Made by a program: the position numbers and the translations under genes
Shown here: positions 6,010 through 42,277 of the stretch, in pieces
Position numbering within the stretch: position 1 is the stretch's first letter
How the letters are laid out: each line of letters opens with the position of its first letter
From: Bacteroidota bacterium
Lineage (GTDB): Bacteria > Bacteroidota > Bacteroidia > Bacteroidales > WCHB1-69
DNA length: 64,000 bases
NCBI GenBank assembly: GCA_037130365.1
Contig: JBAXTE010000009.1
Coordinates: forward strand, 4,452-68,451
Direction of reading: 5' to 3'
Notes under the pieces: model-generated
Told to the model about the DNA's origin: nothing
The model's input: only the letters and a program-made list of their open reading frames with translations
Database searches by the model: none

Positions 6010-6020
6010 TATTTTTTGTG

Positions 6021-6197: not shown

Positions 6198-6290
6198 TTT
6201 CTAGTTTCCGAATATGTCTGCTCCAGATTTTTTCTATAAGCATTCGGGTTTTCATTACGCTTGAGGTCTTCAATACGATATCATTCATCT

Positions 6291-10010: not shown

Positions 10011-10012
10011 CC

Positions 10013-10699
10013 ATGGGGGAATTAATTGAATCATTAAACAATAACGGGTCTGACCAATTTGGATTAGCATTGCTTTCATCAATCGAAGATTTGGGTTTAA
10101 GTATTTTATCTAAAACTGATTTCGAAACATTCATGTTTCATCATATCCTATTGCATCTAGATAAAACAAAAATTAAAAACAATTATGACCTAATGAGGTT
10201 GTTGAAAATCACTCCAAGCAAACTCAGAAGTTTGGAAATGAATAGGTCTGCAAAATTCCTTAATCTTGATTTGTCAAATATTGATAACTGGAGAATGATT
10301 TTTAATGCACTTGATGGCAAAAAGATAGAAACGGAGGATAAAGATAACGGCAAAGTACGAATCTATATTGAAGAATTACATGTACACCGACTAATTGAAA
10401 GATTTGTAGTTGAGGGTGGTTCATCAATAGATTACACTTTGAATAAGAATCAGTTAGTAATTAAATACACTGAGTTTTTATCATTATTAAATGCAATTTT
10501 AGTAAAAGCTAAAAAAGAACCTTTATTGACTGCTATAAATAAAGACAAAAGTCAATTTAAAGTTAAGAAAGAATTTGAGAGCTTTCAAAACATAATTTCG
10601 GATGTTAAGGAAGCAATGAAGGATGCGACATTTGAAAAAGCAGCTGAATTTGCATTAAACAAAATAATAAAAATTGCAAAAGACAAATTAGGATTATGA
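10013..10699 (+). CDS. Uncharacterised protein embedded between hsdR and hsdM
   Basis: 228-aa ORF that starts 2 nt after the hsdR stop and overlaps the hsdM start by 4 nt (ATGA). I recognise no motif in it. Confidence 0.8.
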   Translation: MGELIESLNNNGSDQFGLALLSSIEDLGLSILSKTDFETFMFHHILLHLDKTKIKNNYDLMRLLKITPSKLRSLEMNRSAKFLNLDLSNIDNWRMIFNALDGKKIETEDKDNGKVRIYIEELHVHRLIERFVVEGGSSIDYTLNKNQLVIKYTEFLSLLNAILVKAKKEPLLTAINKDKSQFKVKKEFESFQNIISDVKEAMKDATFEKAAEFALNKIIKIAKDKLGL

Positions 10700-12123
10700 G
10701 CAACATCGGAGGAGTAATAAAATCAATACGGGACATATTCAGAAAAGACCCTGGTTTGAGTGGCGATGCACAACGCATTGAGCAATTGGGATGGATGATT
10801 TTTTTAAAACTGTTTGATGATAAAGACAAGGAAAAGGAAATTCTTGATTTGAATTACAAATCCCCGATACCTGCAGAATTACAGTGGAGAAATTGGGCAG
10901 AAAACGATGAAGGAATCACAGGAGAAGAGCTTATCAATTTTGTGAATAACAAATTATTTCCCCAACTGAAGGAATTGCATATTACGGCAGACAACAGATT
11001 AGGCGTAATCATCCGTCAAATATTCGATGGAACCAACAATTATATGAAAAGTGGCACCACCTTTCGTCAGGCCATCAACAAACTCAACGAAATAGATTTC
11101 AATAGCAGCAAAGAACACCACGTGTTCAATGCAATCTATGAAGATATACTTCAAGGACTTGCCACCAAAAAAGACACAGGCGAATTTTATACACCAAGGG
11201 CAGTCACTCAATTTATCATCGACATGGTAAATCCAAAATTGAGCGAAAAAATTATTGACCCCGCATGTGGCACCGCTGGTTTTTTGGTTTGTGCCATAGA
11301 GCATTTGCGTAAGCAGGTAAACAATGTGGCAGACCGTAAAATATTGCAAGAAACCATAACAGGAACCGAATTGAAGCCGCTTCCGTTTATGTTGAGTATC
11401 ATCAACTTGATTACGCATGATATTGAAGTGCCAAAAATTGAGAATGACGATGCCTTGAGCCGTGAGTTAAGCTCCATTTCAAGAAAAGAGCAAGTGGATA
11501 TCATTGTTGCAAACCCTCCATTCGGTGGCGTGGTAGGTGATGGCATGGAAAACAACTTCCCGATGAACTTTCGCACCAAAGAGAGTGCCGACCTTTTTCT
11601 GATTTTGTTTATTCAACTGCTCAAAGATGGTGGCCGTGCTGGTATTGTATTACCCGATGGCAGCCTGACAGGTGATGGCGTAAAATCCAGAGTGAGAGAA
11701 AAACTATTGACCGATTGCAACCTGCACACCATTGTAAGGCTCCCACAGAGCGTATTTGCTCCCTATGCAACGGTAAACACCAATCTGTTGTTCTTTGCCA
11801 AAGGAACTCCCACAAAGGAGATTTGGTATTACGAACACGCATTGCCCGAAGGCTATAAAGCATACAGCAAAACGAAGCCGATTAAAATTGAGGAGTTCAA
11901 CGACATAAAAAAATGGTGGGACAACAGAACCGAAAGCGAAACCTGTTGGAAAGTCTCCATGGATACCATCAAAGAACGTGGGTTTGATTTAGACATCAAG
12001 AATCCAAATAAGGTTGTGGAAGAAGTGGAATTGAATATTATGAAAATTCTCGGAATTCTTAAATCTGAAAACAATAAAGTAAGCACAATTATCCAGGAAC
12101 TTGAAAACGATTTGGCTAAATGA
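10696..12123 (+). CDS. hsdM: Type I restriction-modification system, M subunit (N6-adenine DNA methyltransferase)
   Basis: 475 aa with a SAM-binding motif (IIDPACGTAGFL), catalytic motif IV (IVANPPFGG) and an HsdM N-terminal helical domain (QLGWMIFLKLFDD). Confidence 0.95.
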   Translation: MSNIGGVIKSIRDIFRKDPGLSGDAQRIEQLGWMIFLKLFDDKDKEKEILDLNYKSPIPAELQWRNWAENDEGITGEELINFVNNKLFPQLKELHITADNRLGVIIRQIFDGTNNYMKSGTTFRQAINKLNEIDFNSSKEHHVFNAIYEDILQGLATKKDTGEFYTPRAVTQFIIDMVNPKLSEKIIDPACGTAGFLVCAIEHLRKQVNNVADRKILQETITGTELKPLPFMLSIINLITHDIEVPKIENDDALSRELSSISRKEQVDIIVANPPFGGVVGDGMENNFPMNFRTKESADLFLILFIQLLKDGGRAGIVLPDGSLTGDGVKSRVREKLLTDCNLHTIVRLPQSVFAPYATVNTNLLFFAKGTPTKEIWYYEHALPEGYKAYSKTKPIKIEEFNDIKKWWDNRTESETCWKVSMDTIKERGFDLDIKNPNKVVEEVELNIMKILGILKSENNKVSTIIQELENDLAK

Positions 12124-13586
12124 CAATATTAGAACTATTTAAAAAAGTACATCCATCTGTATTAGCTGCCAAAATGATTTTTAAGCATTTGCAGGATAAT
12201 TACCCTGTTCTTAAAATATCTGACATTGCCGATACTTCAAGCGGGGGAACTCCAAATCGTGGAATGATTGAATTCTACAACGGTGATATTCCTTGGGTAA
12301 AATCAGGTGAATTAAAAGATGGCATAATAACAAAATGTGATGAATACATTACAGAAGCAGGATTAAAAAACTCTTCTGCAAAGTTATTTCCTAAAGGCAC
12401 TTTACTTGTTGCTATGTATGGTGCAAACATTGGGAAAACGGGTGTATTAGATTTTGATGCAACTACAAATCAAGCGGTCTGTGCAATATTTCCGAAAGTC
12501 GATATTTCAAAAGACTTCTTGTTTTGGTATTTCAAACAACAACGAATTGAATTTATAGCTATTGGCAAAGGTGGAGCACAGCCAAACATTAGCCAAACTA
12601 TAATTAATAATGCGTCAATTGTTGTGCCTGATGAAAAAACACAACAGAAAATTGTTGACTTCTTGGAAGCAATTGAACAAGGCAAAGGAATTGATGAAAA
12701 TTTCTTTATTCCCGAAGTGCTTGAAGATGTAGCACGAATTTACAAGTATAAGAACAACTATATAGATTTGTCTGTTAGCTTTGAAACCCAACTAACCCAA
12801 ATAGAAAACCTAAACCAAGCAATCTTACAAGAAGCGGTGCAGGGGAAATTGGTAAAGCAAGACCCCACAGACGAACCCGCAAGCCAACTACTCAAGCGCA
12901 TCAAAGCCGAAAAATTAAAATCTGGCAAAAAGGAAAAACCATTACCAGCCATCAAACCTGAAGAAATTCCGTTTGAAATCCCTGAAAATTGGATGTGGTG
13001 CAGGTTAGGCGATATTTGTTCAAAAATTGGCTCAGGGAGTACACCAAAAGGAAGTAATTATTCAAAAAATGGGTTCCCATTTTTTCGTTCACAAAACATC
13101 TATGACGAAGGTTTAGTTTATTTTGATATAAAATTTGTTTCAGAAGAAGTTCAAAAGCAAATGAATGGGACAATGGTACTTTCAAATGATATTCTTTTAA
13201 ATATTACAGGTGGTTCAATGGGACGTTGCGCAATAGTCCCAGATGACTTTAATCAAGGCAATGTAAGTCAGCACGTTTGTATAATCAGACCAATGGAAAT
13301 AGATAAAAAGTTTTTTCATAAAATTGTTTTATCTCCTTATTTTCAAAAAAAAGTTTTTGCTTCTACTACAGGTGCAGGTAGAGAAGGGTTGCCAAAATAC
13401 AATCTTGAAAGATTTGTTATTCCAATTCCACCACTATCCGAGCAAAAACGTATCGTATCTGAAATAGAAAAGCAATTAGCCAAAACCAAACAATTAAAGA
13501 TACACATTACAGCCAACCAACATGCCACCGAGCAACTGCTCAAAGCATTGTTGCATGGGGCTTTTGAGGTGGCGGAGGGCTTATGA
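12120..13586 (+). CDS. hsdS: Type I restriction-modification system, S (specificity) subunit
   Basis: 488 aa with two target-recognition domains (SGGTPNRG..., GSGSTPKGSNY...), each followed by a conserved helical spacer (IPIPPLSEQKRIVSEIEKQL). The start overlaps hsdM by 4 bp (ATGA). Confidence 0.93.
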   Translation: MTILELFKKVHPSVLAAKMIFKHLQDNYPVLKISDIADTSSGGTPNRGMIEFYNGDIPWVKSGELKDGIITKCDEYITEAGLKNSSAKLFPKGTLLVAMYGANIGKTGVLDFDATTNQAVCAIFPKVDISKDFLFWYFKQQRIEFIAIGKGGAQPNISQTIINNASIVVPDEKTQQKIVDFLEAIEQGKGIDENFFIPEVLEDVARIYKYKNNYIDLSVSFETQLTQIENLNQAILQEAVQGKLVKQDPTDEPASQLLKRIKAEKLKSGKKEKPLPAIKPEEIPFEIPENWMWCRLGDICSKIGSGSTPKGSNYSKNGFPFFRSQNIYDEGLVYFDIKFVSEEVQKQMNGTMVLSNDILLNITGGSMGRCAIVPDDFNQGNVSQHVCIIRPMEIDKKFFHKIVLSPYFQKKVFASTTGAGREGLPKYNLERFVIPIPPLSEQKRIVSEIEKQLAKTKQLKIHITANQHATEQLLKALLHGAFEVAEGL

Positions 13587-13622
13587 CAAAATATAATAAA
13601 GGATTGTATCTTGTTTCATTAG

Positions 13623-13630
13623 TACTTTTG
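13623..13630 (+). promoter_or_regulatory. Candidate -7 promoter box (TACTTTTG) ahead of the six-gene cluster
   Basis: Matches TAnnTTTG in the 75-bp gap after hsdS, 32 nt upstream of the ATG at 13662. Confidence 0.4.
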
Positions 13631-13661
13631 TATGTAATCATTAATTCTAATTTAGCGAAAT

Positions 13662-15623
13662 ATGAGTGAAATGTTAGCCGAAATAAGGCGAATTGTAAAC
13701 GAAGATATAAGTAGTCGTGTATCACAATATGATGTAATATTTGAAGCAATTACAAATGCAATTCATGCAAACGCAACAAATATAATTTGTACTTTTCATA
13801 CAGGAGAATATACTCTTAAAGAACATGATGTTATTGAAATTGCAAATAAGAAAGTTGATGATATAACAATTTTTGATAATGGAGATGGGTTTAACACTTC
13901 AAACTATAACTCCTTTTGTAAATACAGAACAGATTTAAAAAAGGATTTAGGTTGTAAAGGGGTCGGTCGGTTTGTGTTTTTAAAAGTGTATGACAATGTG
14001 CTTTATAAAAGCCAAATTGCAGATGAACAAATAGAAAAAGTGTTTAAGTTTAATCTTGACTTTAAAACAGAAAATATCAGTACCACTGAAACTAAAATTG
14101 AATCAAATACCACTGAATTATTTTTAAAAGGGTTAACTTCACAATACATTGATTATGATAAACATATAAATAGACGAATTGATTTGGATTTGGAAATAAT
14201 TCGTGAAAAGGTGTTGCTAAATCTAATCCCTACATTGTTTTTTTACAAAAAGAAAGGTGTTTTAATTAAAATAGACTTTGTTGATAGTACAACGTCTAAT
14301 ACTCTATCAATACTGGATTCAGATATTCCAGATTTTTTTGAAACACCATTTAAAATTACGGATAAAAACGGATTTAAATATGGCTTTACTTTAAATCATC
14401 GAATAGAGAAAGAGAGCGGTAAATTAAATGCATTTTATTGCGCAAACAATAGAACCGTATGCGAATTTTCAGATAAAGATTTTAAATTATCATTGCCTTA
14501 TGGCTATTCAGGTTACATGCTTTTAGAGTCGAACTATTTTGATTCTAAAGTAAATCACGAAAGAAATAATTTTGATATATTTCCTTTTAAAACAGATGCA
14601 TTTTCGCTTGTTTCTTGGGAAATGATAAATGCTAAACTCAAGTCAGTCATATCTGAAATTGTCAAGGAAGGTATTCCTGAAACAAATAAAATCAATCAGG
14701 AAAAATTAGAAGAAATTCAAAATGAAAGACCTTATTTGGTTAGCTATATCAATGAAGAAGATATTGACATGGCTGGTTTTTTAGATAAAAAACATCTTAT
14801 AGAGAAAGCAAAAAAACGTTTTGATGTTGAAAAAGAAAAACTGTTGACATCGGCTGGAAAAGAATCATACACAGATGAAGAATTGAGCGATGCAATAGAG
14901 ATTACACAAAACGAATTAGTATCATATATAAACGATAGAGCACAAGTTTTGGAACGATTACGAACCTTGCTAAACAAAAAAGAAAGAGTAGAATCCATAA
15001 TCCATAATTTGTTTATGGAAAGATATTCAGATGATGATTATTTTTCTGTCGGTAAAAATAATTTATGGTTATTAGATGATAGATTCACAACATATAGTTA
15101 TGCAGCCAGTGAAAAAAGGATTGCAGAAGTATTAAAACAAATAGGAGAAGAGTCCGAAGATGTTGAAATTTCCGATGACCGTCCCGATTTATCTCTTTTC
15201 TTTTCACATAATCCAAATTCGCCAGAGCGCTTAAAATCGGTACTTGTTGAGATTAAGCCATTTGATTATCAATCAAAATCAGATAGAAAAAAGTTTGCAG
15301 GCATTCAGCAATTAGTAGATTATGTGAAAGCTTTTAAAACAAAAGAAAATTTAGAAGAGATATTTGCATTTCTAATAACCGATATTGATGAAAAGCTTAC
15401 CACTCGATTAAAAGACAATGATTTCATTCCTTTGTTTTCAACTGAATCTCCAATTTTTCATAAGTTTTTCAATACACTTGGAATTTCTATATATGTTATA
15501 AGTGCTCACACTCTAATTAAAGATGCAGAAGCACGCAACAAAGTATTTCTGGACATTATAAGAAAACAAAGCAGGCTAAATAAGATATTACAATCAAATG
15601 AAGCAACTTTGATTTTAGAATAA
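13662..15623 (+). CDS. GHKL-superfamily (Bergerat-fold) ATPase with a C-terminal PD-(D/E)xK-like module
   Basis: 653 aa. The GHKL motifs are N-box FEAITNAIHA, DxGxG as FDNGDGF and GxxGxG as GCKGVGRF. Near the C-terminus, RPDLSLFF-x-VLVEIKP gives a literal PD...ExK spacing (D-x20-E-x-K). Confidence 0.75.
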   Translation: MSEMLAEIRRIVNEDISSRVSQYDVIFEAITNAIHANATNIICTFHTGEYTLKEHDVIEIANKKVDDITIFDNGDGFNTSNYNSFCKYRTDLKKDLGCKGVGRFVFLKVYDNVLYKSQIADEQIEKVFKFNLDFKTENISTTETKIESNTTELFLKGLTSQYIDYDKHINRRIDLDLEIIREKVLLNLIPTLFFYKKKGVLIKIDFVDSTTSNTLSILDSDIPDFFETPFKITDKNGFKYGFTLNHRIEKESGKLNAFYCANNRTVCEFSDKDFKLSLPYGYSGYMLLESNYFDSKVNHERNNFDIFPFKTDAFSLVSWEMINAKLKSVISEIVKEGIPETNKINQEKLEEIQNERPYLVSYINEEDIDMAGFLDKKHLIEKAKKRFDVEKEKLLTSAGKESYTDEELSDAIEITQNELVSYINDRAQVLERLRTLLNKKERVESIIHNLFMERYSDDDYFSVGKNNLWLLDDRFTTYSYAASEKRIAEVLKQIGEESEDVEISDDRPDLSLFFSHNPNSPERLKSVLVEIKPFDYQSKSDRKKFAGIQQLVDYVKAFKTKENLEEIFAFLITDIDEKLTTRLKDNDFIPLFSTESPIFHKFFNTLGISIYVISAHTLIKDAEARNKVFLDIIRKQSRLNKILQSNEATLILE

Positions 15624-15675
15624 AAAATACTTCTTGTTTCAAACCCCATTTATCAAACAAAAAAACAATAAGCAA

Positions 15676-16095
15676 ATGGAAACAACAGATGAACTATTGA
15701 GATATATTAAAACTCATGTGCCAAACTTTTCAAATCCTAAAATTATTAGCAGTGGTGTGGCTTATCACTATACAATGCATTCAGATTTAATTCAAAAAGA
15801 TGGGCGTATAAAAGGTAGAATAATTGATGAAAATATTGATTGCTCACAGAATGATTTTGTTTCTATTCCAGCGACAGAGAACAATGGTGTTGTTTTCGCA
15901 TATGAAAGTTTAGTAGAATCTAAATTGGAAGCTTTCGTTTTACCTGAAGATAAACAAAGAATTAAAATTATAAAAAATGATTATAATTCAGCTGTATACG
16001 CAAATCATCAGCAGGAAGTTGATTATACTGGTGCCCCACCAACAATTATTATTTTGGCTCATGAGATAACAAATTTTCAAATTATTTATCCTTAA
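15676..16095 (+). CDS. Small hypothetical protein (139 aa)
   Basis: The ORF is co-directional and lies 11 nt upstream of the next gene. I prefer the ATG at 15676 over the non-ATG start at 15634 in the track. I recognise no motif in it. Confidence 0.7.
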   Translation: METTDELLRYIKTHVPNFSNPKIISSGVAYHYTMHSDLIQKDGRIKGRIIDENIDCSQNDFVSIPATENNGVVFAYESLVESKLEAFVLPEDKQRIKIIKNDYNSAVYANHQQEVDYTGAPPTIIILAHEITNFQIIYP

Positions 16096-16106
16096 TTGTT
16101 TTTTAT

Positions 16107-16799
16107 ATGACTTATATTGTAGCAGGTAAATTAAGCTCATGCACATGTCTCATGGCAGATTGTATTGTTAATAGAACAGGTGATACTCCTATATTCACTG
16201 ACAAAATACGTAAACTTACCAGTTCAGATGATACGTTTTTTTCTGTAACGGGTAACTGTTTAATTCCCGAATCTGTTGAAATATTGGATATGTGGTTATT
16301 TTCTTTAGGCAGACCAAATGACTTTATTTCAGGTAATAATAGTATAACTGATTTAGTGAAGTTAATATCATGGCGTTTTGATAAATATCATCGTACAGAT
16401 GGTGCAAAATTAGATAACAATCGAATATTCTTTATTAATCGTGATTCTGTAATTTACTATAATTTATTTTATAATGAAAATAATCTCCTTACATCTAATC
16501 TTGCTAAAACAGTATTACAGAATAAAAAACAAATTACCAATATGTCGCCCCATCCTATATCATTTGATTTGATTTCTACAAGTAATCCACTACGCTATTG
16601 TAAATCAGTTATTGATGATTTAGCAAAATCGGAAAATAAAGATTTGAAAGACCGTTTTTCATATATTCAACTTAATAGTGATTCTGATGACATTATTATT
16701 TCACCTTTTAAGAAAATATCTGACATAGTTGCAGCTTATGAGGGGGCTGATTATAATCTTTTAGATGATATTTCTTTATCATGGGATGAAATAAAATAA
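16107..16799 (+). CDS. Hypothetical protein with a proteasome-beta/HslV-like N-terminal-nucleophile signature
   Basis: 230 aa starting MTYIVAG...CLMADCIV...DKIRKL...FFSVTGN. After Met removal this gives Thr1, Asp17 and Lys32. HslV and proteasome beta subunits have Thr1/Asp17/Lys33, with the same alternation of hydrophobic strands. Confidence 0.45.
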   Translation: MTYIVAGKLSSCTCLMADCIVNRTGDTPIFTDKIRKLTSSDDTFFSVTGNCLIPESVEILDMWLFSLGRPNDFISGNNSITDLVKLISWRFDKYHRTDGAKLDNNRIFFINRDSVIYYNLFYNENNLLTSNLAKTVLQNKKQITNMSPHPISFDLISTSNPLRYCKSVIDDLAKSENKDLKDRFSYIQLNSDSDDIIISPFKKISDIVAAYEGADYNLLDDISLSWDEIK

Positions 16800-16896
16800 C
16801 TCATCCGAACAAAGCCAAACTAGGTGAATAACATCATAATGTATCATTATCTTTAATCATTAATTGAAATAAAGTTCATACAAATAACAACAAATA

Positions 16897-17847
16897 ATGA
16901 ATGCTGAAATTAAATATATTGACATCTTAGATAGAAAAGCTGATTATGAATTGATTTATAAAGAAACATTTAGAACAGAATTGGGTCTAAGAGCAATATC
17001 AATAATGTATGATGAACATTCCAATGATAAGAAATCACATGACAATATTTTGAGATTTAAAGACAACATTCAATACAGGCTTTTTTCAGCAACTCATCAA
17101 TATTTAGTTCTATTAAAAGAGTTATGGGGGGCAGAATCTTATTTGCAAAATCTGTATAAAAAAAATCCTCGATATATTAATTCTTTCCCATTTGAAAATC
17201 CTTTTTTTGATAAAGTAGAACAAGAATTATCATCTGTTTTTGATAATGTAATTTTTCAAGTAACTTCAATTTTTGATTATTTAAGTCATATCGTGTGTTA
17301 TATCACTTTTACAAATAAAACAAATACTCTATATTGGACTAAACTTGCAAGAGCATCAAGAGGTCAAAATAATGATTTTTCAAACATTGAATTGAAAAAT
17401 ATAATAGACATTGTGGATAGGCGTTTTGTTGGTAAGCTTTATGATTATCGCTCACGATTAATTCACGATAAAAGAGATAGACACATTTTTAATGCTCAAG
17501 CAAAATTGATTGATTTCCAATTTAATTTACAATTGCTACCTTCTGATGTCGCTCTTAAACACTTTAAGCTCATAAAAGAGGAGATACCTGTAGGTGCAGA
17601 TGTTACGCTAACATATCTAGCATCATGGTTGATTAAAAGAGCATTTTTTGAAATTGAAACTATACTGGATGTGTTGTCAATTGAATTAAAAAAAGGGTCA
17701 AACTTCCACAGTAATTTGATAAACCCAAAAAGAGGTGATGATGCATTATTGTTTATAACAATGAATCCTGAAACAAGACAAGTTGAACCATTATCAAATG
17801 GTCTATGGAAGGAATATAAAGAAAAAACCAAATCAGTGAAACAGTAG
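16897..17847 (+). CDS. Hypothetical protein with an Rx4H (HEPN-like) motif
   Basis: 316 aa, predicted mostly helical. The motif LYDYRSRLIHDKRD contains R-x4-H, the minimal HEPN RNase signature. There is no other support. Confidence 0.35.
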   Translation: MNAEIKYIDILDRKADYELIYKETFRTELGLRAISIMYDEHSNDKKSHDNILRFKDNIQYRLFSATHQYLVLLKELWGAESYLQNLYKKNPRYINSFPFENPFFDKVEQELSSVFDNVIFQVTSIFDYLSHIVCYITFTNKTNTLYWTKLARASRGQNNDFSNIELKNIIDIVDRRFVGKLYDYRSRLIHDKRDRHIFNAQAKLIDFQFNLQLLPSDVALKHFKLIKEEIPVGADVTLTYLASWLIKRAFFEIETILDVLSIELKKGSNFHSNLINPKRGDDALLFITMNPETRQVEPLSNGLWKEYKEKTKSVKQ

Positions 17848-17860
17848 CAAAATCGACTCT

Positions 17861-19606
17861 ATGAAAACAAACTCCAATAATAGCTCCATTAGCTATATGC
17901 AATTACTAGAATTTAAATTAGTCTTTCCAGATGAAATACCGTTGTCCGTTGATGAGTATCTTAAAGGTAGTAATAGGGGGGATATACTAAATGCTGCTTC
18001 TCATTTTCTAGGTTTTAACCCCAATAATTCAAAAATATTAGATAATAGGGAGTTTTTAAGTAATTTTTTTTGCGCTGAAAACAATGATTTAGCTAACTAT
18101 GTTTATGGTGTAATTAAAAATATCGAGAAAACAGGCACAAAAGTGGGGGTAATCAATCCATATTCAAGTCTATCATTGTTTGAATGTTGTTATAAAAATG
18201 AAGAAAAAGAAGAAACACAATCAAATTCTGATTTTGAAATAAATCTCTTTAAAGCATATCTTGTATTAAACTCTCAATTTACAAGTAAGCAAAAAATTGC
18301 ATTTACTTCAACCCAAGATTTACATCCATTATTGATAAATCCCATGGAATTGTTTTGTATGCAATATCCGCTTGCTGATAAAGTAAATTACGACATCAAT
18401 AGGATATGGGTAAATCAGATGTTAAAAGCAACTCATTTATTTGTATTTCTTGAATCCAATGAGAAAACAGCACCTTTACTTAAAGCTTTTCTTGAGTTTT
18501 TTAATAAAAAAAACTGGCAAGATTTTTTAAAAAGCCTACTTCCTTTAACCAATCCAATGAAATATGCAGATAATGAAGGATTTATTGATTTTGGTGTAAA
18601 TAAGAATGATGATTTTCAAGGAAGTTGCTTGTTTATTGAAAAGTTTATTGTTGATGAAAATGATAGTTTTGATGAAAATGATTTTCTTAGTATTCGGGGT
18701 AAACCTTTTTATAAAGTTGAGGATGGAGTCTATCGGGTAATTTTTCCTTTATTTGTTGTCGAAAAGATATTTAAAGGATTGTATTTTTATTTAAGTGAAG
18801 TTAATAAAACGTTAGATAAGCCATTTGGAAATATCAAAAGCTTTTATGGTGGTGAGTTTTCTGAAAATATCCTGCTTTACAATGTAATGGGAAGCATCTG
18901 GAATAATAAATGTTGTAAGTTTTCAGGCAAACAGATTTCTGAAATGAAAATTGACGGGTTTATTGATTATTATGTTAGAAAAGGGAAAAATATTTTATTG
19001 TTTGAGTCCAAAGATTTTCTTATTAAAGCAGACAAAAAAGCTTCTTTTGATTTTAATATTTATGAGAAAGAATTTAAAAAGTTACTCTACTATGAAGACA
19101 TGCCAAATGGCAAAAGGAAACCAAAAGCTGTAATTCAATTAATAAATAGTATTCGCAAAATACTTAGAAGAGAGTTTGCCGCTGATAAAGATTATAAATA
19201 TCGTGAAGTAAATATTTACCCAATTCTAATAATTCATGATTCCCAATACGATGTGCCAGGTTTTAATTTTCTTATAAATTATTGGTTTCAGCAGGAGATA
19301 GCGTCACTAAAAGAAGAAGGGGTGTATACTCATAATATTAAACCACTTGTGGTTATTAATATTGATTCACTTTTATATTATCAAGTCGCTCTTGCAGAAA
19401 ACACACCACTCCACAATATTATAAATCAGTATGAAATTCAAACGAAAGGTTCAATAAATGACAAATCGGGGTTCGATAATAAGAAATTTGATAAATATAT
19501 TCCTTTTTCATATTTCATTGATGATTTTTTCAAGAATAAAGGCATTGCAAAATTCCCTCCCTTATTGGATTTTGTAGCCCCATTGTTATTCAGTAATGAT
19601 AAATAA
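17861..19606 (+). CDS. Large hypothetical protein with a C-terminal PD-(D/E)xK-like motif
   Basis: 581 aa. KIDGFIDYYVRKGKNILLFESKDF gives D-x12/16-E-x-K preceded by a hydrophobic strand. It starts 13 nt after the previous gene. Confidence 0.45.
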   Translation: MKTNSNNSSISYMQLLEFKLVFPDEIPLSVDEYLKGSNRGDILNAASHFLGFNPNNSKILDNREFLSNFFCAENNDLANYVYGVIKNIEKTGTKVGVINPYSSLSLFECCYKNEEKEETQSNSDFEINLFKAYLVLNSQFTSKQKIAFTSTQDLHPLLINPMELFCMQYPLADKVNYDINRIWVNQMLKATHLFVFLESNEKTAPLLKAFLEFFNKKNWQDFLKSLLPLTNPMKYADNEGFIDFGVNKNDDFQGSCLFIEKFIVDENDSFDENDFLSIRGKPFYKVEDGVYRVIFPLFVVEKIFKGLYFYLSEVNKTLDKPFGNIKSFYGGEFSENILLYNVMGSIWNNKCCKFSGKQISEMKIDGFIDYYVRKGKNILLFESKDFLIKADKKASFDFNIYEKEFKKLLYYEDMPNGKRKPKAVIQLINSIRKILRREFAADKDYKYREVNIYPILIIHDSQYDVPGFNFLINYWFQQEIASLKEEGVYTHNIKPLVVINIDSLLYYQVALAENTPLHNIINQYEIQTKGSINDKSGFDNKKFDKYIPFSYFIDDFFKNKGIAKFPPLLDFVAPLLFSNDK

Positions 19607-19636
19607 GCCAATAGTCAATATTATAAAAATAATTAT

Positions 19637-20620
19637 ATGCTAAGATTTAACCGTTATCTAAGCGATGATGCTTTTAAATTCCTGAAAAATAAAGGGTCGT
19701 GGATAATCCCCGAAATAATAAATGCTAGGCCATTTAATTGCGCTTTTGCTTTTGATATTCAAATTAGGGAAAACGATTATTTGATGGTTTATGTAGGAAC
19801 CACAAGTGTTCTTAAGATTCAATTAGGTGCAGATTTTGTAAATTTCTCAGCACATAAAACTTATAAGGATAGTTTCCTGAAAAAATACTTATTTACTGAT
19901 TTGCCTTATGGTGAAATCAGTAATTACCTTGGTCGGATTCTTCCAAAAGTGGATTCAAGATATTTTGAAAATCACAAAGAAGGCTATTATCAAAATTACT
20001 TATGTTATCATTTGGGGGAAGTTGCAAGCAAAGATTCTCCATTTATTATTTTTGATAGAGAATGTGTTTTAGGTTTCGATAATAGCAATGAAAAAATAAA
20101 TCATCTGACACCATTGAAAAATAAATATGAACAAATTAGAACCGATTTACAAGAAAATAATTCAAAAAGATGGGGTATGCCAAAGTTAAAATCACTGGGA
20201 GACGAGTTGGATATGTTGGCCATTGATAATAATTGCAATCTCATTTGTATAGAATTAAAACATTCATTAAATGGTTCTGGTATTTATTGGACTCCGCTTC
20301 AAGTTTCATTATATCGAGACGCATTTGAAAGTGCTAACAATCAAGTTGTTTTTGATAGCATTAAGAAAATAATCTCTCAAAAAGCAGAATTAGGACTTTT
20401 ACCTGATTGTGTAAATAGTATCATGGATAAAAACAATTCATTCAATAAAATCATTTCACTTGTTGCAGTAGGAGGAGAGGTGAACAAAAAAATGAGTTGT
20501 TGGAGTAAATTTGAAGAAGTATGTGCTAAAAGTCCAAAAGATTTACAAAACCAAATATTTGTTTTCAATGAGAATAATTTAGGTAATTACATGTCAGTAA
20601 TTAGTGGAGTATTGGGCTAA
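19637..20620 (+). CDS. Hypothetical protein with a PD-(D/E)xK nuclease-like core (Shedu/NucS-style D...hhhhELK pattern)
   Basis: 327 aa. GDELDMLAIDNNCNLICIELKHS matches the D-x(8-13)-E-x-K pattern with a preceding beta-strand-like stretch. This is the last gene of the co-directional cluster. Confidence 0.45.
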   Translation: MLRFNRYLSDDAFKFLKNKGSWIIPEIINARPFNCAFAFDIQIRENDYLMVYVGTTSVLKIQLGADFVNFSAHKTYKDSFLKKYLFTDLPYGEISNYLGRILPKVDSRYFENHKEGYYQNYLCYHLGEVASKDSPFIIFDRECVLGFDNSNEKINHLTPLKNKYEQIRTDLQENNSKRWGMPKLKSLGDELDMLAIDNNCNLICIELKHSLNGSGIYWTPLQVSLYRDAFESANNQVVFDSIKKIISQKAELGLLPDCVNSIMDKNNSFNKIISLVAVGGEVNKKMSCWSKFEEVCAKSPKDLQNQIFVFNENNLGNYMSVISGVLG

Positions 20621-21645
20621 TACGCCATAACTTAAAACAAGCAGAAAATTCATAGGTAGAAAGTAACTAACAATAATGGAAGCACGAGTAAAATTTTAGC
20701 ATTCCCTCCCACAAACCAAAAGCAGGTAATAAATCGTCCTCTGCCTCCGAAAATCAGCACCAGCCTGCAAAATCCCCGCCCTTCACTTAAAATGAAGCGT
20801 TCAGGGCTTGCTTGGTCTTTTCCAGGCTTCCCCACAGCATCCCACAGTTGTTTTTTTCTGTCACACTTCTTGCAAAATTATCCCACATGGCACATTGCTT
20901 TCCCGAAAAAAGCAATAAGCCAACCATCCCACAAAAGCAAAAAGGCGCTACATTCCAACCACCACCACCATTCCGCTTGTGCCAGAAATAAAACAACCCA
21001 AAGCTAAATAACATAATGTGGCATTATAGTATATTCCCGATGGGCTCCACTACGTTACGGGGTTGCCACCCAATATCCTATAAAAACATTATATTAAATA
21101 GCCGCACAGGCATCCCACAGTTCCCACTCCGTTGCCACAAATCCCCACCGCCCATTTATAAGGTGTAGGGTAAGTAAAGCATAAAATTTTATGGCAAAGT
21201 GCTTAAAAGCAGGTTCATTCGCTCTCACTACGTTACGTTTCGGACACTCCGTTCATTTCGCTTTGCTACAATCACTACATTATCCTTCACTACACTTTGC
21301 ATTCGTTCATTTCTCCAGCGCAGCACCGCACAGCAAAAGTGCCTCACTCATTCCACTCCACAATCAAAACCAACAAATCTTTCACTACGCATCTACAGGC
21401 ATAATTTAAACATTTTTAAATAAACAAAATTCTATAAAGCAAATTATACCTGACAGTTGCTACGTTCAAACCTTAAATCAATTGTTTCGTTACATTCAAT
21501 CACCACCCTTGCTCATCCATCCCACATATAACAAGGTATGCTTTACTTCCCCCACTAAGTATTTGTCCCCTTTATGCTCATAATACCTCTCATAATTTAG
21601 GTACAGTTATTGTTTATTTAAGCTATTGAAATTCAATTTTAAACT
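20621..21645. other. ORF-free, C-rich (plus strand) region of about 1 kb with recurring short motifs; candidate structured ncRNA, protein-binding array or decayed foreign DNA
   Basis: No ORF exceeds 75 aa in any frame, even though the region is visibly less AT-rich than its surroundings. ATCCCACA occurs five times (20839, 20880, 20926, 21112, 21519). CACAG(G)CATCCCACAGTT occurs twice (20833, 21105). CACTACGTTACG occurs twice (21048, 21226). CGTTCATTTC occurs twice (21250, 21304). TCACTAC occurs four times. Confidence 0.6.
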
Positions 21646-22182
21646 ATGAAAAAAATCACACCAATCATTATCCTATTACTTTTTTCTTTTAAAAGTTATA
21701 GTCAAGATTTAAATAATTCAAACCTTATTAAAGAGTCTCGTAAATTATATATTGACAGTCTTTTAAGTATTTATAAAGGCAATATTAAAGACCCGATAAT
21801 TCTATATTCTAATGAACTTCCAAATAATTATACTCTTCCTCCTTCAAATATTTTAAATTTAGAGGCAAACTGGTACAGCTATTATAGTACATGTAAACAA
21901 AGAACAAAAATCAATACTAATTACAAAGTAGAAGAAATTTCAGACACAACTATTATAATTGGATTCTATTTAGTTAGGGAATATAGAAAACACTTTTTAT
22001 TTTTATTTCCGACAAAAGGCTCAATAATCAGACCTTTAAATTATTCAAAAAACAACTATAATGATTTTTGTGAAAAAAATTATTATATGCAATTCTATTA
22101 TAAATACGATTGTATAAATCATAAATGGATATTAGTTCCTGAACATTCATTTCGTAATTATCCAAAAGTTTTTGAAATTTAG
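21646..22182 (+). CDS. Secreted hypothetical protein
   Basis: 178 aa with an N-terminal signal peptide (MKKITPIIILLLFSFKSYSQ). I recognise no motif in it. Confidence 0.7.
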   Translation: MKKITPIIILLLFSFKSYSQDLNNSNLIKESRKLYIDSLLSIYKGNIKDPIILYSNELPNNYTLPPSNILNLEANWYSYYSTCKQRTKINTNYKVEEISDTTIIIGFYLVREYRKHFLFLFPTKGSIIRPLNYSKNNYNDFCEKNYYMQFYYKYDCINHKWILVPEHSFRNYPKVFEI

Positions 22183-22262
22183 AGCCTTATTATAGATAAA
22201 AAAACAAAAAGCAAGCAAAGATAGGTTGGCTTTCCCCAAGTATATCAAAACTCTCATTATAA

Positions 22263-22355
22263 GGCTATCAAGGTCGTGGCACTTCGTGTTTTGCAATATA
22301 AATCTCCAGTCAGCCAAAGGCTGATAGTATTTATATCGCAAAAACCTTGACAGCC
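22263..22355. other. Long nested imperfect hairpin in an intergenic region
   Basis: There are three coaxial stems. The outer stem is GGCTATCAAGGT (22263-22274) with ACCTTGACAGCC (22344-22355), 12 bp with 1 mismatch. The middle stem is TTGCAATATAAAT (22291-22303) with ATTTATATCGCAA (22329-22341), 13 bp with 1 mismatch. The apical stem is TCAGCC-AAA-GGCTGA (22310-22324). Confidence 0.6.
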
Positions 22356-22467
22356 TACTACGCCACCCTTTTAGATGGCTTTCTTTTTCTTTTTTTTTAG
22401 TTTTTTCATTTTTCTTTGTTAAATTTTGATGTGAGCGTAGCGAAGCTAATTTTTTAAAGCTCGCATT

Positions 22468-22890
22468 ATGGAAACGTTACAAATCAAATCGCACAAAATC
22501 GGCAGAGAATACACACAGCCACATTTTTTCATCCTTAACAAAGGAAACAATAGCGGAAAACCATTAAATCAACCATGCCCGAATTGCTTTGTCTGCATCA
22601 CAAACACTTCAAACGACAGAGAACAATTATATTGGCTTTTATATGGCTTATGGCGTTCAAACTCCTTTTATCAATACCTTAGAGGTTCTGTTATTCCTTT
22701 TATCGTGGTAAGGGACTTAAAATCGTGTATTATCAGCGCCAATTCAATTGCTGCAATAAATCAGGATGATTTTAATAAATCCGTGTCAACCCTTCGCACT
22801 CTTGAGAATCTGGAAGCTACCTACAAAAAGAACCTTCAACTAATCGACCAAGCAAAAAAAGCAGTTTTTAAAATATTTTCGCCTCATTAA
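22468..22890 (+). CDS. Hypothetical protein; weak resemblance to a solitary HsdS-type half (one TRD plus conserved helix)
   Basis: 140 aa. The C-terminal FNKSVSTLRTLENLEATYKKNLQLIDQAKKAVFKIF resembles the conserved helical spacer of S subunits. The resemblance is judged by eye only. Confidence 0.3.
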   Translation: METLQIKSHKIGREYTQPHFFILNKGNNSGKPLNQPCPNCFVCITNTSNDREQLYWLLYGLWRSNSFYQYLRGSVIPFIVVRDLKSCIISANSIAAINQDDFNKSVSTLRTLENLEATYKKNLQLIDQAKKAVFKIFSPH

Positions 22891-27897: not shown

Positions 27898-28371
27898 ATG
27901 AAAAAAGTAGTTAGTTTATTATTAGTTGTTGTAGCATTAGTAGCTTTCAACTCATGTAAAAAATCAGAAACTCCAGAAGCAGTTGCTGACAAGTATTTAA
28001 AAGCTATTGGACAAATGAAATTTGACGAAGCTAAGACTTTAGTTACCGAAGAATCAAAACCAACTATTGATTTTATGGTTCAAATGTCAACAATGGGCGG
28101 AGAAGAAGCTAAAAAAGCTGCAGCTACTGCAAAAATTGAAATCAAAGACATGAAATGCGAAACTAAAGGTGATGCTTCAGATTGCGTTTGTAAAGTTAAT
28201 GATGGCAAAAAAGAAGAAGAAACTAAATTACATCTTGTTAAAAAAGATGGAAAATGGTTAGTTGAACAAAAGAAAGAAGGTGGCGCTCCAACTGAAACAG
28301 CTCCTGCTGATTCAACAAAAACTGAAGTAGCTCCTGTTGCTGAAGAAACTAAAACTGAAGTTAAAAAATAA
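27898..28371 (+). CDS. Lipoprotein, function unknown
   Basis: 157 aa with a lipobox (LVAFNSCKK) and a Lys/Glu-rich, low-complexity C-terminus. Confidence 0.75.
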   Translation: MKKVVSLLLVVVALVAFNSCKKSETPEAVADKYLKAIGQMKFDEAKTLVTEESKPTIDFMVQMSTMGGEEAKKAAATAKIEIKDMKCETKGDASDCVCKVNDGKKEEETKLHLVKKDGKWLVEQKKEGGAPTETAPADSTKTEVAPVAEETKTEVKK

Positions 28372-42074: not shown

Positions 42075-42277
42075 TCACATAAATATAAAGAATTCATCAA
42101 ACTTAAAAAATGTTCTGATAATATACATTATGTTAAGTAGATAAATTTAAACTAATCCAATTATTGAAAATTGGAATAAATTGTAATCCCACCACTCTTA
42201 TGTTATAGGCATTCAGATTATTAGAATAAATGTAGAAAAATAATATTAATAATTGTTGGTTATATCAGAATATTTCC

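Follow-up and report, generated by a model that had tools for sequence, protein, structure and literature searches.

A non-coding stretch at the edge of a mobile island

The DNA analysed here, called the window, was a 64-kb stretch of a Bacteroidota genome. A ~20-kb island had its left end at 4336-6009, where a tRNA-Met gene (4336-4410, plus strand) lay together with the gene of a large serine recombinase (4369-6009, minus strand), which fits the remark in a preliminary description of this DNA that large ornate RNAs often occur in mobile elements near tRNAs. The cargo from there to the element described below comprised a type I restriction-modification system, a HATPase protein, unknown ORFs and a weak SUKH-like ORF, all on the plus strand. 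The ORF just upstream of the element gave a weak SUKH (immunity-type) match. The recombinase of the island is of the serine type, and no tyrosine recombinase was found in the 64-kb window. On the other side of the element lay a gene for a 140-aa DUF6943 protein (22468-22890, plus strand). Pfam, PHROG and NCBIfam assigned this protein to the DUF only, a PDB sequence search returned nothing significant, and its AlphaFold2 model (pLDDT 78) matched no PDB fold significantly in Foldseek. Type I S-subunit chains appeared only at E > 3.

Between 20621 and 21645 the longest ORF had 75 aa (20787-21014, minus strand), and the base counts were A 332, C 280, G 131 and T 282, which corresponded to 27% C and 13% G against fractions of 0.156 and 0.166 in the whole window. 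GC content rose from ~0.30 to 0.40-0.47 and GC skew fell to between -0.25 and -0.55. The ORF-free, C-rich and G-poor character first described for this stretch was thus reproduced, as were the minus-strand G-runs GGTGGTGGTGG and GGGCGGGG. The recurring words were also recovered: ATCCCACA five times (at 20839, 20880, 20926, 21112 and 21519), TCACTAC four times, CACTACGTTACG twice at a distance of 178 bp, and CGTTCATTTC, CACTCCGTT and GTTGCCAC twice each. The word GCATCCCACAGTT was present in two direct copies, at 20837 and 21110, with a spacing of 273 bp instead of the 272 bp given earlier. All of these motifs were on the plus strand, and no reverse-complement copies were found within 20621-21645. 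In 1000 dinucleotide-preserving shuffles none of the motifs seen at least twice reached its observed count; there were 12 repeated 10-mers where the shuffles averaged 1.8 (P = 0), and the most frequent 8-mer occurred 5 times, compared with 2.4 in the shuffles (P = 0.008). The 17-mer CACAG(N)CATCCCACAGTT was a lineage-specific word of the window, and as a query against viral contigs it gave chance matches only. The stretch was therefore real as described, but the biological unit was larger. It extended roughly from 20700 to 22440 and was split by an inserted ORF (21646-22182). The originally noted stretch corresponded to domains D1 and D2 of a ~1.1-kb element, whose domain D3 and T-rich block reached to 22440, and the element ended at the DUF6943 gene.

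A family of related elements in Bacteroidota

BLAST comparison of the element with its relatives showed 72-83% identity over 116-280 nt, with E values down to 3e-31. Outside the core it was only 50-60% identical to all relatives, so that no clear breakpoint signal for mosaic recombination at the core could be obtained. The 20-mer AACATAATGTGGCATTATAG (21009-21028) was found, identical, in 147 loci (56 genome, 90 metagenome and 1 viral), mostly from Bacteroidota and from freshwater, marine, soil and wastewater habitats. Bacteroides was absent among the loci recovered by the 20-mer scan, just one of 2.9 million viral contigs carried the 20-mer, and BLASTN of phage and plasmid collections gave no match to the element. 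Cultured carriers included Tenacibaculum haliotis KCTC 52419 (L008), Labilibaculum filiforme 59.16B (L019) and Flavobacterium aurantiibacter TH167 (L041). The D1-core family was defined by the arms …AACATAATGTGGCATTATAG… and …CCTATAA.n.ACATTATGTTAA… inside the conserved D1 fold, and the window carried both, as the exact 20-mer and as a 3′ arm at 21073-21099. No literature was found on DUF6943, DUF6266 or a non-coding element in such islands, and the element is apparently a widespread Bacteroidota non-coding family without earlier description.

Subfamily A (type A) was defined by the order D1-D2-D3-T-rich block followed, on the same strand and at a fixed distance, by a DUF6943 gene. It contained 52 loci, the window among them, and in each the element was placed between co-oriented cargo and the DUF6943 gene, which was linked to it at a nearly fixed distance in 52/52. 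All 29 measured relatives of this type were ~1 kb long and ORF-poor, with C at 0.22-0.26 and G at 0.13-0.17. The distance from the anchor to the DUF6943 gene was 766-1107 nt in most relatives, 1764 nt in L030/L057 and 1459 nt in the window, where the inserted ORF at 21646-22182 accounted for the greater length. Subfamily B (type B, 60 loci) carried a primase and two tyrosine recombinases (YRs) directly upstream of the element, with YR2 at about -1.1 kb and YR1 at about -2.0 kb. The primase was of the DnaG type and was followed by the tandem Xer-like YR pair and then by D1; these YRs matched XerC, XerD and integron-integrase models with E values of 1e-32 to 1e-53. The type-B loci examined had co-oriented orphan toxin/immunity cassettes downstream, including RHS-C-terminal and immunity-like cargo, and units of ~6-8 kb stood in tandem in four loci (L141, L033, L043 and L153). 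The element is located at the cargo edge of mobile defence/toxin-immunity islands.

Heavily decayed foreign DNA of higher GC content was one explanation offered at the outset, and a degenerate gene was considered along with it; the repeats would then be remnants. The local rise in GC and the lack of ORFs would fit such an origin. However, composition, length and helices were kept across at least 50 loci in several Bacteroidota classes, the indels were not codon-like, no reading frame was conserved, and a pseudo-query built from all six frames, compared with 5.8 billion sequences, had no protein relative at E <= 1e-3. With conserved blocks and co-varying helices in place, this explanation was abandoned as scarcely credible.

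Architecture of the element

D1 (20700-21116, plus strand) was the most widely conserved module, common to both subfamilies, and its architecture in the subfamily B alignment equalled that in subfamily A. Nested long-range helices surrounded a core hairpin that was invariant. The outer helices of D1, P1 and helix 2, were not formed in L008, L016 or the window, where a variant 5′ segment stood in their place. The 5′ arm of the core hairpin was core site 1 (21001-21034, minus strand) and the 3′ arm was core site 2 (21073-21099, plus strand). A C-rich block in the D1-D2 linker (21139-21165, plus strand) was invariant in the alignment; it read AAATCCCCACCGCCCATTTATAAGGTG in the window and CCCCACCACCCTTTTCAGCGGT in the family, and was recognisable in subfamily B as …CCAACGCTTCCCCAAGCGGTGTGCA…. 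D2 (21158-21563, plus strand) was closed by an 18-bp helix between 21165-21182 and 21538-21555. According to a k-mer census its interior was rich in strand-specific words, which were TCACTAC and CGTTCATTTC in the window and CATTCC/TCCATT in relatives; recurring words of this strand-specific kind characterised the family as a whole.

The spacer between D2 and D3 tolerated insertions. In the window it contained an ORF of 178 aa (21646-22182, plus strand) with a signal-peptide-like N-terminus, which had no match in Pfam, PHROG or NCBIfam and was missing from all relatives, where the spacer was about 60-110 nt long. In L030/L057 a 317-aa EEP-nuclease-like gene was inserted at the same point on the opposite strand, and in L063 an IS21 lay inside the element. 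D3 (22207-22370, plus strand) had closing arms of the AGGTGGC/GCCACCT type, which enclosed further helices (CCAAAAG/CTTTTGG in relatives) together with a small hairpin, and a D3-like module was found in subfamily B too. At the 5′ edge of D3 the minus strand carried a conserved TAnnTTTG motif (22218-22225), the Bacteroidota -7 box. An invariant T-rich block (22378-22428, plus strand; …GGCTTTCTTTTT…TTTTTCTTTGT… in the alignment) stood directly upstream of the DUF6943 gene, and subfamily B had an analogous T-rich block upstream of orf113. The block is likely the promoter or leader region of the small ORF.

Conserved fold of the element

Homologues collected by BLAST (56 genome loci) and a covariation analysis, both proposed in the preliminary description, demonstrated a large, conserved, multi-domain secondary structure. 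In D1 (alignment A3), 98 pairs were 91.4% paired and 41 of them had double changes, a count reached in 0/500 shuffles and standing at 12-17 in slid controls. In D2 (alignment A4), 65 pairs were 91.8% paired, with double changes in 32 (0/500 shuffles; 4-8 in slid controls), and ten co-varying pairs were in the closing helix. Folding z-scores of D1 were between -4 and -9, strongly negative for both strands.

The size and the domain structure raised the question of a large ornate RNA, cis- or trans-acting, which would be a new class of a size like GOLLD, ROOL and OLE. Such an RNA could arise from the plus strand together with the cargo operon or from the TAnnTTTG box on the minus strand at the edge of D3. 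Its role might be processive antitermination or insulation of the cassette array; it might persist as a stable RNA derived from a 3′ UTR; its recurring C-rich single-stranded words might make it a sponge or scaffold for proteins; or it might regulate the linked small ORF. Large bacterial non-coding RNAs are classically recognised by such a multi-domain fold, in which the helices co-vary and unpaired blocks are invariant, and the strand-specific words recurring in loops and linkers resemble those of sponge RNAs. The pairing itself looked DNA-like. Among the helix cells of D1, 1527 were Watson-Crick, 10 were G.T and 34 were A.C, while other mismatches numbered 37 (C.T/T.C), 20 (A.A) and 18 (C.C), which showed that wobble was tolerated by neither strand. 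One-sided (G.U) changes were seen in 9 cells against double changes in 165, and G.U made up ~0.6% of the D1 helix cells, whereas in known structured RNAs its share is typically several per cent or more. RNA-type tetraloops were virtually absent: the loop census found GNRA in 3/60 loops of the plus strand and in none of the minus strand, and no UNCG loop on either strand. It also found 17 C(GNA)G triloops on the minus strand. On the plus strand the closing helix of D2 ended in a conserved tandem G.U/U.G, which had an RNA-like look and speaks for an RNA. The hints on the strand conflicted: the GNA triloops pointed to the minus strand, whereas the plus strand was favoured by the tandem G.U and the G-poor linkers. 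The compositional bias was located in the unpaired columns (C 0.32, G 0.14), and the paired columns were balanced, a pattern suggestive of selection acting on one strand. Rfam 15 covariance models at gathering thresholds, run over the whole window, gave nothing in the region, the models for GOLLD, ROOL, OLE, HEARO and group I/II introns included; at E <= 10 only a chance match to SNORA38 appeared, outside the element, and a scan of 14 related loci gave no match.

The transcription data were in part favourable to an RNA. RNA contigs from three unrelated metatranscriptomes contained D1 and its upstream flank; their depth was 10-36x where the neighbours had at most 5x, the depth of D1 being 5-10 times that of neighbouring genes, and the contigs were strandless. 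This cover indicated transcription at least through read-through, and as all flanking cargo is co-oriented, the element is necessarily read through unless transcription is terminated. The conserved -7 box on the minus strand also agrees with an RNA. However, no conserved plus-strand promoter for the element was found, and the window's element had no RNA in three shallow metatranscriptomes, in which the DNA of the organism was at ~100x and a nearby gene had a depth of 50-65. Moreover, the invariant core consists of two dif-like putative protein-binding sites adjoining recombinase genes, and genes of 0.5-1 kb are tolerated between D2 and D3, one of them on the opposite strand. The insertions in the window and in L030/L057 and the IS21 in L063 mark the modules as separable and are difficult to square with a single RNA that has to be continuous. 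Of the structured RNA put forward at the outset, therefore, the large conserved fold stood, whereas its RNA nature was not borne out by the few G.U pairs, the missing tetraloops and Rfam matches, and the recombinase-site-like core. We regard an RNA of this kind as the main, though rather unlikely, alternative. It appears improbable that the island's own transcript yields, in the ~1-kb fold, a large ornate RNA of a new class that would scaffold or guide the Xer-like pair or serve as a processive antiterminator or insulator of the cassette array, with the dif-like hairpin acting as RNA or as both RNA and DNA.

The core hairpin as a double dif-like site

Sites of the dif/Xer type were defined by an XerC-type arm of ~11 bp ending in ATAA, a spacer of 6-8 bp and an 11-bp XerD-type arm, TTATGTnAAnT, and the published dif sequence was used for comparison (PMC3025954). 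Hairpin arms of dif-like sequence were present in every member of the family. On the minus strand, core site 1 consisted of the XerC-type arm ATATACTATAA, the 7-nt spacer TGCCACA and the XerD-type arm TTATGTTATTT, with the 20-mer AACATAATGTGGCATTATAG lying inside it; core site 2 consisted of ATATCCTATAA, AAACA and TTATATTAAAT. Both scored as dif-like by this definition, although the 5-nt spacer of site 2 is below 6-8 bp. The XerD-type arm of the family consensus agreed with the E. coli dif arm at 10-11/11 positions. The two sites were mutually inverted and 49 nt apart, measured from arm to arm. Helices 6 and 7, formed by the pairing of the arms, were 95-99% paired in all members, helix 8 between the arms had five co-varying pairs, and the core hairpin appeared in DNA and RNA folds of both strands. 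The unequal spacers of the two arms would leave an internal bubble when the arms pair. The core thus has two inverted dif-like sites that pair as a single strand, as in a CTXφ-type attP(+), and such pairing in single-stranded DNA (ssDNA) is a known paradigm (PMC3025954, PMC3091885). From these sequences we infer that the hairpin arms may be bound by Xer-type recombinases.

A chromosomal dif is a single-copy site at the replication terminus, where GC skew switches. The sites were rejected as such a dif, being paired, inverted and inside an island, with no switch of skew or gene strand at 21 kb. A solitary third dif-like site was found at 42118-42138 (plus strand; TTCTGATAA, TATACA, TTATGTTAAGT), among housekeeping genes and in direct orientation relative to core site 2. 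It matched the 3′-arm consensus of the family at 24/25 positions and may be the native Xer target of the host. No GC-skew or gene-strand switch was present there either, so it was not taken as the chromosomal dif, and the stretch from 21.1 to 42.1 kb was rejected as an integrated element since it holds housekeeping genes.

Comparison with known systems

The element resembles the forked hairpin of CTXφ attP(+) and other integrative mobile elements exploiting Xer (IMEX) in its inverted pair of dif-like sites tens of nucleotides apart, which can pair into a stem whose XerC- and XerD-type arms leave the centre unpaired, in the place of these sites within a structured intergenic stretch of a small integrative element that codes for no protein there, and in its tandem arrays at one locus. 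It differs in its far larger folded region (three domains, ~1 kb) and its Bacteroidota host. CTXφ and IMEX rely on host XerCD, whereas subfamily B encodes its own Xer-like pair and a primase; no filamentous-phage, microvirus or rolling-circle Rep genes were seen here, and recombination of the hairpin is in our case presumed. With integron attC sites and CALINs it shares a folded single-strand site in which the conserved boxes are paired, the central spacer is unpaired and the terminal stem is variable and co-varies, a fold presumably made for an Xer-related tyrosine recombinase, and co-oriented defence and toxin/immunity cargo; like CALINs, some copies, including that of the window, have no integrase nearby. 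However, attC sites of 57-141 nt follow every cassette, whereas here each unit has one element of ~0.4-1 kb, and the attC boxes are RYYYAAC/GTTRRRY where those of the present element are dif-like. No attC-like repeats were found between cassettes, with one core hairpin per unit. An integron was rejected on these missing inter-cassette repeats and on the YR scores of 36-134 bits against integron-integrase cut-offs of 265-435.

The rAID-1 system of Bacteroidales (recombinase-associated acquired interbacterial defence) also combines an XerD-family tyrosine recombinase, a conserved non-coding stretch after it, and short co-oriented orphan immunity or toxin-fragment genes of skewed composition (Ross et al., bioRxiv 10.1101/471110; 10.1101/2025.05.03.651265). 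Its authors termed it integron-like, with an unknown mechanism (10.1101/471110; 10.1101/2025.05.03.651265). Its definition, within Bacteroidales, asks for an XerD-like recombinase at the 5′ end that is >44% identical to BF9343_RS08045, followed by at least two co-oriented genes of <=41% GC. Motifs repeat between its ORFs, and it has a single recombinase and lacks a primase, whereas type B has two YRs and a primase. The architecture of type B is analogous, and the window lacks a tyrosine recombinase. We know of no large folded element described for rAID. In Acinetobacter pdif modules, which lie on plasmids, accessory genes are likewise bounded by dif-like XerC/D sites, some inverted, and the XerD-type arm TTATGTTAAAT is identical; those sites are simple 28-bp duplexes that flank modules and lie kilobases apart, whereas the inverted sites here are 35-110 nt apart within a fold. 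GOLLD, ROOL and OLE and the ssi, sso and Frpo elements, which are initiation or origin signals of single-stranded DNA, are alike in size, multi-domain fold, location in mobile elements near tRNA genes and strict dependence on orientation. Unlike GOLLD, ROOL and OLE, the present element lacks an Rfam match, G.U pairs and RNA tetraloops, and unlike it, the sso and ssi sites (150-330 nt) have no dif-like sites.

A proposed folded single-stranded DNA site

The reading we favour, and to which we would give an even chance, is that the element is no gene but the core, acting in cis, of a mobile-element module: a recombination or replication region that works as folded ssDNA, like CTXφ attP or a giant attC. 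The strand would become single-stranded during transfer, replication or lagging-strand exposure, and the long-range helices would then draw the two dif-like sites together as a duplex stem whose centre stays open as an unpaired bubble. Such a stem with its bubble could be the substrate of an Xer-type recombinase pair, comparable to the CTXφ attP(+) hairpin and the integron attC, and the folded substrate would serve to integrate or exchange the cargo together with the element. Unambiguous folding would be ensured by D2 and by the G-depleted, C-rich linkers with their recurring words, which might also bind accessory proteins or prime synthesis of the complementary strand, while D3 and the T-rich block would control the linked small ORF, DUF6943 here. 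The type-A copy of the window would depend on host XerC/D or on a type-B helper, or would be a relic. The near-pure Watson-Crick helices fit ssDNA. On the other hand, the primase-helicase next to the element suggests double-stranded replication, and the absence of a relaxase, HUH Rep or other ssDNA-generating function beside the element counts against a folded ssDNA; inspection of the loci, 8-20 kb each, revealed neither Rep or relaxase genes nor genes of ssDNA phages. Long-range folding of 400-1000 nt of ssDNA also exceeds, to our knowledge, every known attC or attP(+) site, which counts in the same direction, as does the recombinase of the window's island, which is a serine and not a tyrosine recombinase. 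The boundary between cargo and conserved sequence was at the 5′ edge of D1 (L016:2937) and in the D2-D3 spacer, away from the core hairpin, so that a crossover at the core is hypothetical.

A control region of double-stranded DNA, attP- or origin-like, with a structure that is incidental or local, was weighed against this. In it, recombinases, primase-helicase or accessory proteins would act on the core sites and on arm-type or iteron-like words. The place of the type-B element beside integrase and primase genes is typical of att and ori regions, each dif-like core site is complete as a duplex, the words occur 4-8 times per element in one orientation and are lineage-specific, like arm sites or iterons, and the T-rich block and the -7 box suggest promoters. 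However, 73 co-varying pairs between arms 100-400 nt apart are not selected by a duplex function, the words are irregularly spaced and vary by lineage while the structure stays, and the limitation of the bias to unpaired columns again indicates selection on a single strand. A duplex control region therefore seems distinctly improbable. Among the three explanations in the preliminary description, the iteron-like, replication or partition region nonetheless came closest to the evidence from context: the double dif-like site and the primase and two recombinases of the sister subfamily agree with it, but the irregular spacing of the words and the single-strand fold do not.

Should the element be an RNA, it would be a new class of large structured RNA with almost wobble-free helices. 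The 20-mer and the D1 fold can serve as a marker of where variable defence and immunity cargo begins or ends in genomes of Bacteroidota, and the element is a candidate cis-element for rAID immunity arrays, whose mechanism has been open since 2019. If the folded ssDNA reading is true, the element would be a widespread, uncharacterised Bacteroidota platform, of which the core 20-mer alone finds 147 loci. Folded-ssDNA recombination, as in integron attC and CTXφ, would then be extended to a new phylum and scale (about 0.4-1 kb, multi-domain) and to the cargo of anti-phage defence and interbacterial toxin/immunity.

Extent, conservation and distribution of the C-rich region

Analysis of positions 20621-21645 revealed that the segment was free of ORFs, the largest being 75 aa, and that its plus strand was rich in C (27%) and poor in G (13%) compared with 15.6% and 16.6% in the window, consistent with the preliminary description. 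GC content rose from about 0.30 to 0.40-0.47, and GC skew fell to between -0.25 and -0.55. Every multiplicity listed earlier for the recurring words was reproduced, on the plus strand only, and no word seen at least twice attained its own count in any of 1000 dinucleotide-preserving shuffles. The limits first assigned to the region needed revision, as the true unit was larger than 20621-21645. A decayed gene, one of the explanations proposed at the outset, was excluded because all searches came back empty: a pseudo-BLASTX query of all 23 stop-free six-frame segments of at least 28 aa, joined as one, was compared with 5.8 billion sequences and brought up no protein relative at E <= 1e-3, Rfam 15 gave no match in the region at gathering thresholds or E <= 10, and phage and plasmid collections held no similar sequence. 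Rfam also gave no match in 14 related loci, and no paper on the large folded element or on DUF6943, the protein encoded downstream of it, was found in the literature.

Exact copies of the best-conserved 20-mer, AACATAATGTGGCATTATAG (21009-21028, termed the anchor), were present in 90 metagenome contigs, in a single viral contig and in 56 species-representative genomes; almost all of these genomes were Bacteroidota, among them Chitinophagaceae, Saprospiraceae, Flavobacteriaceae and Labilibaculum. In distant genera the similarity to the window covered 20844-21108 and, in some loci, also 21134-21360 and 22267-22398. In Logan data for the source lakes, three blocks recurred on many further contigs as diverged copies with 80-90% identity. 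A DUF6943 gene lay on the same strand 800-1041 nt 3' of the anchor in 29 genome loci; the distance was about 1760 nt in the related loci L030 and L057. From the upstream gene to DUF6943, all 29 were ORF-poor over about 1 kb, with C of 0.22-0.26 and G of 0.13-0.17, and strand asymmetry is therefore a family trait. Strand-specific words were present in 4-8 copies per family member, and in 14 elements CCAACG, CATTCC and CGCACA were counted 32, 35 and 31 times versus 0, 1 and 0 for their reverse complements. The words ATCCCACA, TCACTAC and CGTTCATTTC are the versions of family words found in the window lineage, and the vocabulary noticed initially is a family property of unpaired, G-depleted segments. 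The element is widespread, mostly in Bacteroidota, and matches no catalogued family. Copies in loci L012, L020, L037, L045 and L061 were >95% identical over ~1.2 kb, although the genomes were assigned to separate genera, and in part to separate classes (Kriegella, Phaeodactylibacter, Mesoflavibacter, Aquimarina); this points to recent horizontal transfer or bin contamination.

Architecture of the element

In the alignments, invariant blocks alternated with hairpins whose arms varied by lineage with complementarity kept. The parts are given in plus-strand coordinates. D1 (about 20700-21116) held the invariant core hairpin, and an invariant C-rich linker (21139-21165) led to D2 (21158-21563), which was closed by an 18-bp helix pairing 21165-82 with 21538-55. 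A variable, A-rich spacer followed, then D3 (22207-22370), an invariant T-rich block (22378-22428) and the DUF6943 gene (ATG at 22468, plus strand). An exact 12-nt direct repeat, ATAATTTAGGTA, flanked the D1-D2 unit: the upstream gene contained one copy (20574-20585) in its 3' end, and the second (21592-21603) came directly past D2. The repeat could reflect chance or an insertion footprint.

The D2-D3 spacer measured about 60-110 nt in relatives and held a 178-aa ORF in the window (21646-22182, plus strand) with a signal-peptide-like N-terminus (MKKITPIIILLLFSFKSYSQ), which was present in no relative and had no Pfam, PHROG or NCBIfam match. At the same point, L030 and L057 carried a different gene on the opposite strand, encoding a 317-aa EEP-nuclease-like protein, and an IS21 lay within the element of another relative, L063. 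The spacer is a recurrent insertion point, and these insertions indicate that D1-D2 and D3 are separable modules. The 5' edge of D3 carried TAnnTTTG, a Bacteroidota-type -7 promoter box, on the minus strand (22218-22225). It was kept in 16 of 20 sequences of type A (the element followed by DUF6943) and found at the same position in type B, a sister subfamily; since it overlapped a helix arm, its role may be structural and not that of a promoter. The DUF6943 proteins shared strongly conserved motifs (PHFFILNKGNNSGKP, CPNCFV and LRGSVIPF) and a long C-terminal helix, and Foldseek returned Type I S-subunit structures only among insignificant matches (E > 3).

Covariation and pairing chemistry

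A tool-made alignment of 18 non-redundant sequences gave a D1 structure of 98 pairs (91.4% paired) with changes on both sides in 41; none of 500 column shuffles reached 41, and sliding the partners left 12-17 pairs. The D2 structure (65 pairs, 91.8% paired) showed double changes in 32, compared with 0/500 shuffles and 4-8 in the slid controls. Within D1, double changes occupied 165 cells versus 9 with one-side changes, and single-sequence folding z-scores were -4 to -9 on both strands. The two outermost D1 helices were not formed in the window or in the related loci L008 and L016, and in the window a direct repeat of GCATCCCACAGTT stood in their place. Our results showed that a single strand of the element folds. 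A purely duplex control region would leave the long-range covariation unexplained and is considered improbable.

Both DNA and RNA, and both plus and minus strand, are possible for the folded molecule. The helix cells of D1 contained 1527 Watson-Crick pairs versus 10 G.T, a near-absence of wobble pairs that is atypical for RNA. Mismatch cells comprised A.C (34), C.T/T.C (37), A.A (20) and C.C (18); an A.C on one strand is a G.U on the opposite strand, and A.C showed no excess over C.T/T.C. Compositional bias resided in the unpaired columns (C 0.32, G 0.14), and paired columns were balanced. Among terminal loops, GNRA accounted for 3/60 on the plus strand and none on the minus strand, and UNCG was absent from both. 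On the minus strand, C(GNA)G triloops were counted 17 times and came from about two homologous hairpins; this triloop is exceptionally stable in DNA. Against DNA-like pairing, the helix that closes D2 ended on its outer side in a tandem G.U/U.G conserved on the plus strand.

Two inverted dif-like sites in the core hairpin

In every member, both arms of the core hairpin could be written as an XerC-type arm ending in ATAA, a spacer and an XerD-type arm. Core site 1, the reverse complement of the 5' arm, read …GTACTATAA, TGCCACA and TTATGTTAWTK, and core site 2, the 3' arm, read …GTCCTATAA, a spacer of TAACA, TACACA or CATCACA, and TTATGTTAART; E. coli dif consists of GGTGCGCATAA, TGTATA and TTATGTTAAAT (PMC3025954). 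The two sites were inverted and 35-110 nt apart, and their spacers were unequal, so that pairing left a central bubble (GGC opposite A). Covariation was also seen in the short helix that separates the sites. For the window, folding either strand as DNA or as RNA produced the hairpin; the folding energy alone was not significant (z = -0.6 to -1.5), and support therefore rests on covariation and conservation. The same arrangement has been described for elements of the CTXφ type, in which a pair of inverted dif-like sequences lets the single-stranded genome serve as the Xer substrate (PMC3091885).

A third, solitary dif-like site, TTCTGATAA-TATACA-TTATGTTAAGT, was located at 42118-42138 on the plus strand among housekeeping genes, 145 nt 5' of the SRP RNA gene and in direct orientation with core site 2. 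It matched the family 3'-arm consensus at 24/25 positions, better than the window's own arm, and no switch in GC skew or gene strand occurred there. The site may represent the natural Xer target of the host, which the element would then mimic.

Genomic context

Two mutually exclusive contexts were recognised among the 147 loci, type A (52, including the window) and type B (60, mainly Chitinophagaceae and Ferruginibacter). Type A had variable, co-oriented cargo upstream (type I R-M in the window; pAgo, GmrSD, helicases, Dnd-associated genes or AbiE elsewhere), and downstream DUF6943, next either DUF6266 or a protein of 268 aa, and finally core genes. Type B had the entire D1 architecture in common with type A, as well as a D3-like module; it also had a T-rich block, and a conserved ORF of ~113 aa (orf113) took the place of DUF6943. 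Directly upstream lay a DnaG-type primase/P-loop protein and two tandem tyrosine recombinases, which matched XerC, XerD, XerA and integron-integrase models at E of 1e-32 to 1e-53, though with scores under the family cut-offs; downstream were orphan RHS-C-terminal toxin fragments and small immunity-like ORFs. In loci L141, L033, L043, L153, L025 and L077, type-B units of about 6-8 kb stood in tandem, each comprising primase, two tyrosine recombinases, element, orf113 and 2-3 kb of downstream DNA with toxin/immunity cargo where annotated (L033), resembling stacked small integrative replicons. The logic is that of rAID-1 of Bacteroidales, in which an XerD-family recombinase accompanies co-oriented orphan immunity genes of skewed GC and intergenic repeats likened to integrons, with a mechanism still undescribed in 2025 (bioRxiv 10.1101/471110; 10.1101/2025.05.03.651265). 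Type B occurs in other Bacteroidota and adds a primase and a second recombinase.

No tyrosine recombinase was found within the 64-kb window. A tRNA-Met (4336-4410, plus strand), a large serine recombinase (4369-6009, minus strand) overlapping its 3' end, and then an unannotated 336-aa ORF made up 4336-7301, likely the left end of a ~20-kb island with all cargo genes on the plus strand. The cargo (7557-20620) consisted of a type I R-M system with hsdR (7557-10010), a 228-aa extra ORF, hsdM (10696-12123) and hsdS (12120-13586), a HATPase_c_3 protein of 653 aa, and five ORFs that matched no family; the last of these (19637-20620) had a weak SUKH-1/SMI1_KNR4 immunity-type match. A small Bacteroidales-type SRP RNA (42283-42390, 98.7 bits) and two adjacent tRNA-Leu (GAG, CAG; 51789-51987) are ordinary features that help place the window, consistent with a Bacteroidota host.

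Transcription

The DNA of the window organism reached about 85-110x in its own samples. Three metatranscriptomes from these samples were shallow; neither RNA on the window element nor the SRP RNA was seen in them, and the signal closest to the element was a contig of 218 nt that stopped at 20699, immediately 5' of D1. By far the most represented window feature was a 157-aa ORF (27898-28371, plus strand) with only a weak MecA_N/NTF2-like match, at a contig depth of 50-65 versus 0-6 elsewhere. For a marine relative of the L016 type, RNA contigs from three unrelated datasets covered D1 and 133-334 nt of upstream flank at 10-36x, versus 5x or less for neighbours, with right ends near the D1/D2 border. 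The element region is therefore transcribed at least by read-through; the contigs carry no strand and hence give no direction. A large structured RNA, with which this transcription agrees, ranks second among the readings and is judged rather unlikely.

A proposed role for the element

The reading we favour, with about even confidence, is that the element is cis-acting DNA working as a folded single strand, analogous to CTXφ attP(+) and integron attC. D1 would be a Xer-type recombination site in folded single-stranded DNA, D2 an auxiliary structure, and D3 with the T-rich block the control region of the linked small ORF. The element would belong to small integrative units with defence or toxin/immunity cargo, and the window copy would be either a relic or a derivative that lacks its own recombinase and depends on a type-B helper or on XerC/D of the host. 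Several points count against this proposal: no source of single-stranded DNA was identified, the fold size is unprecedented, cargo boundaries lay at the D1 edge and the D2-D3 spacer instead of the core, and the region is transcribed. The ornate fold itself is demonstrable, and its link to Xer-type site-specific recombination and cassette-bearing islands is plausible. The element would then belong with the folded-strand recombination sites of the Xer/integron type; if the folded molecule is RNA, it would represent a new class of large structured RNA.
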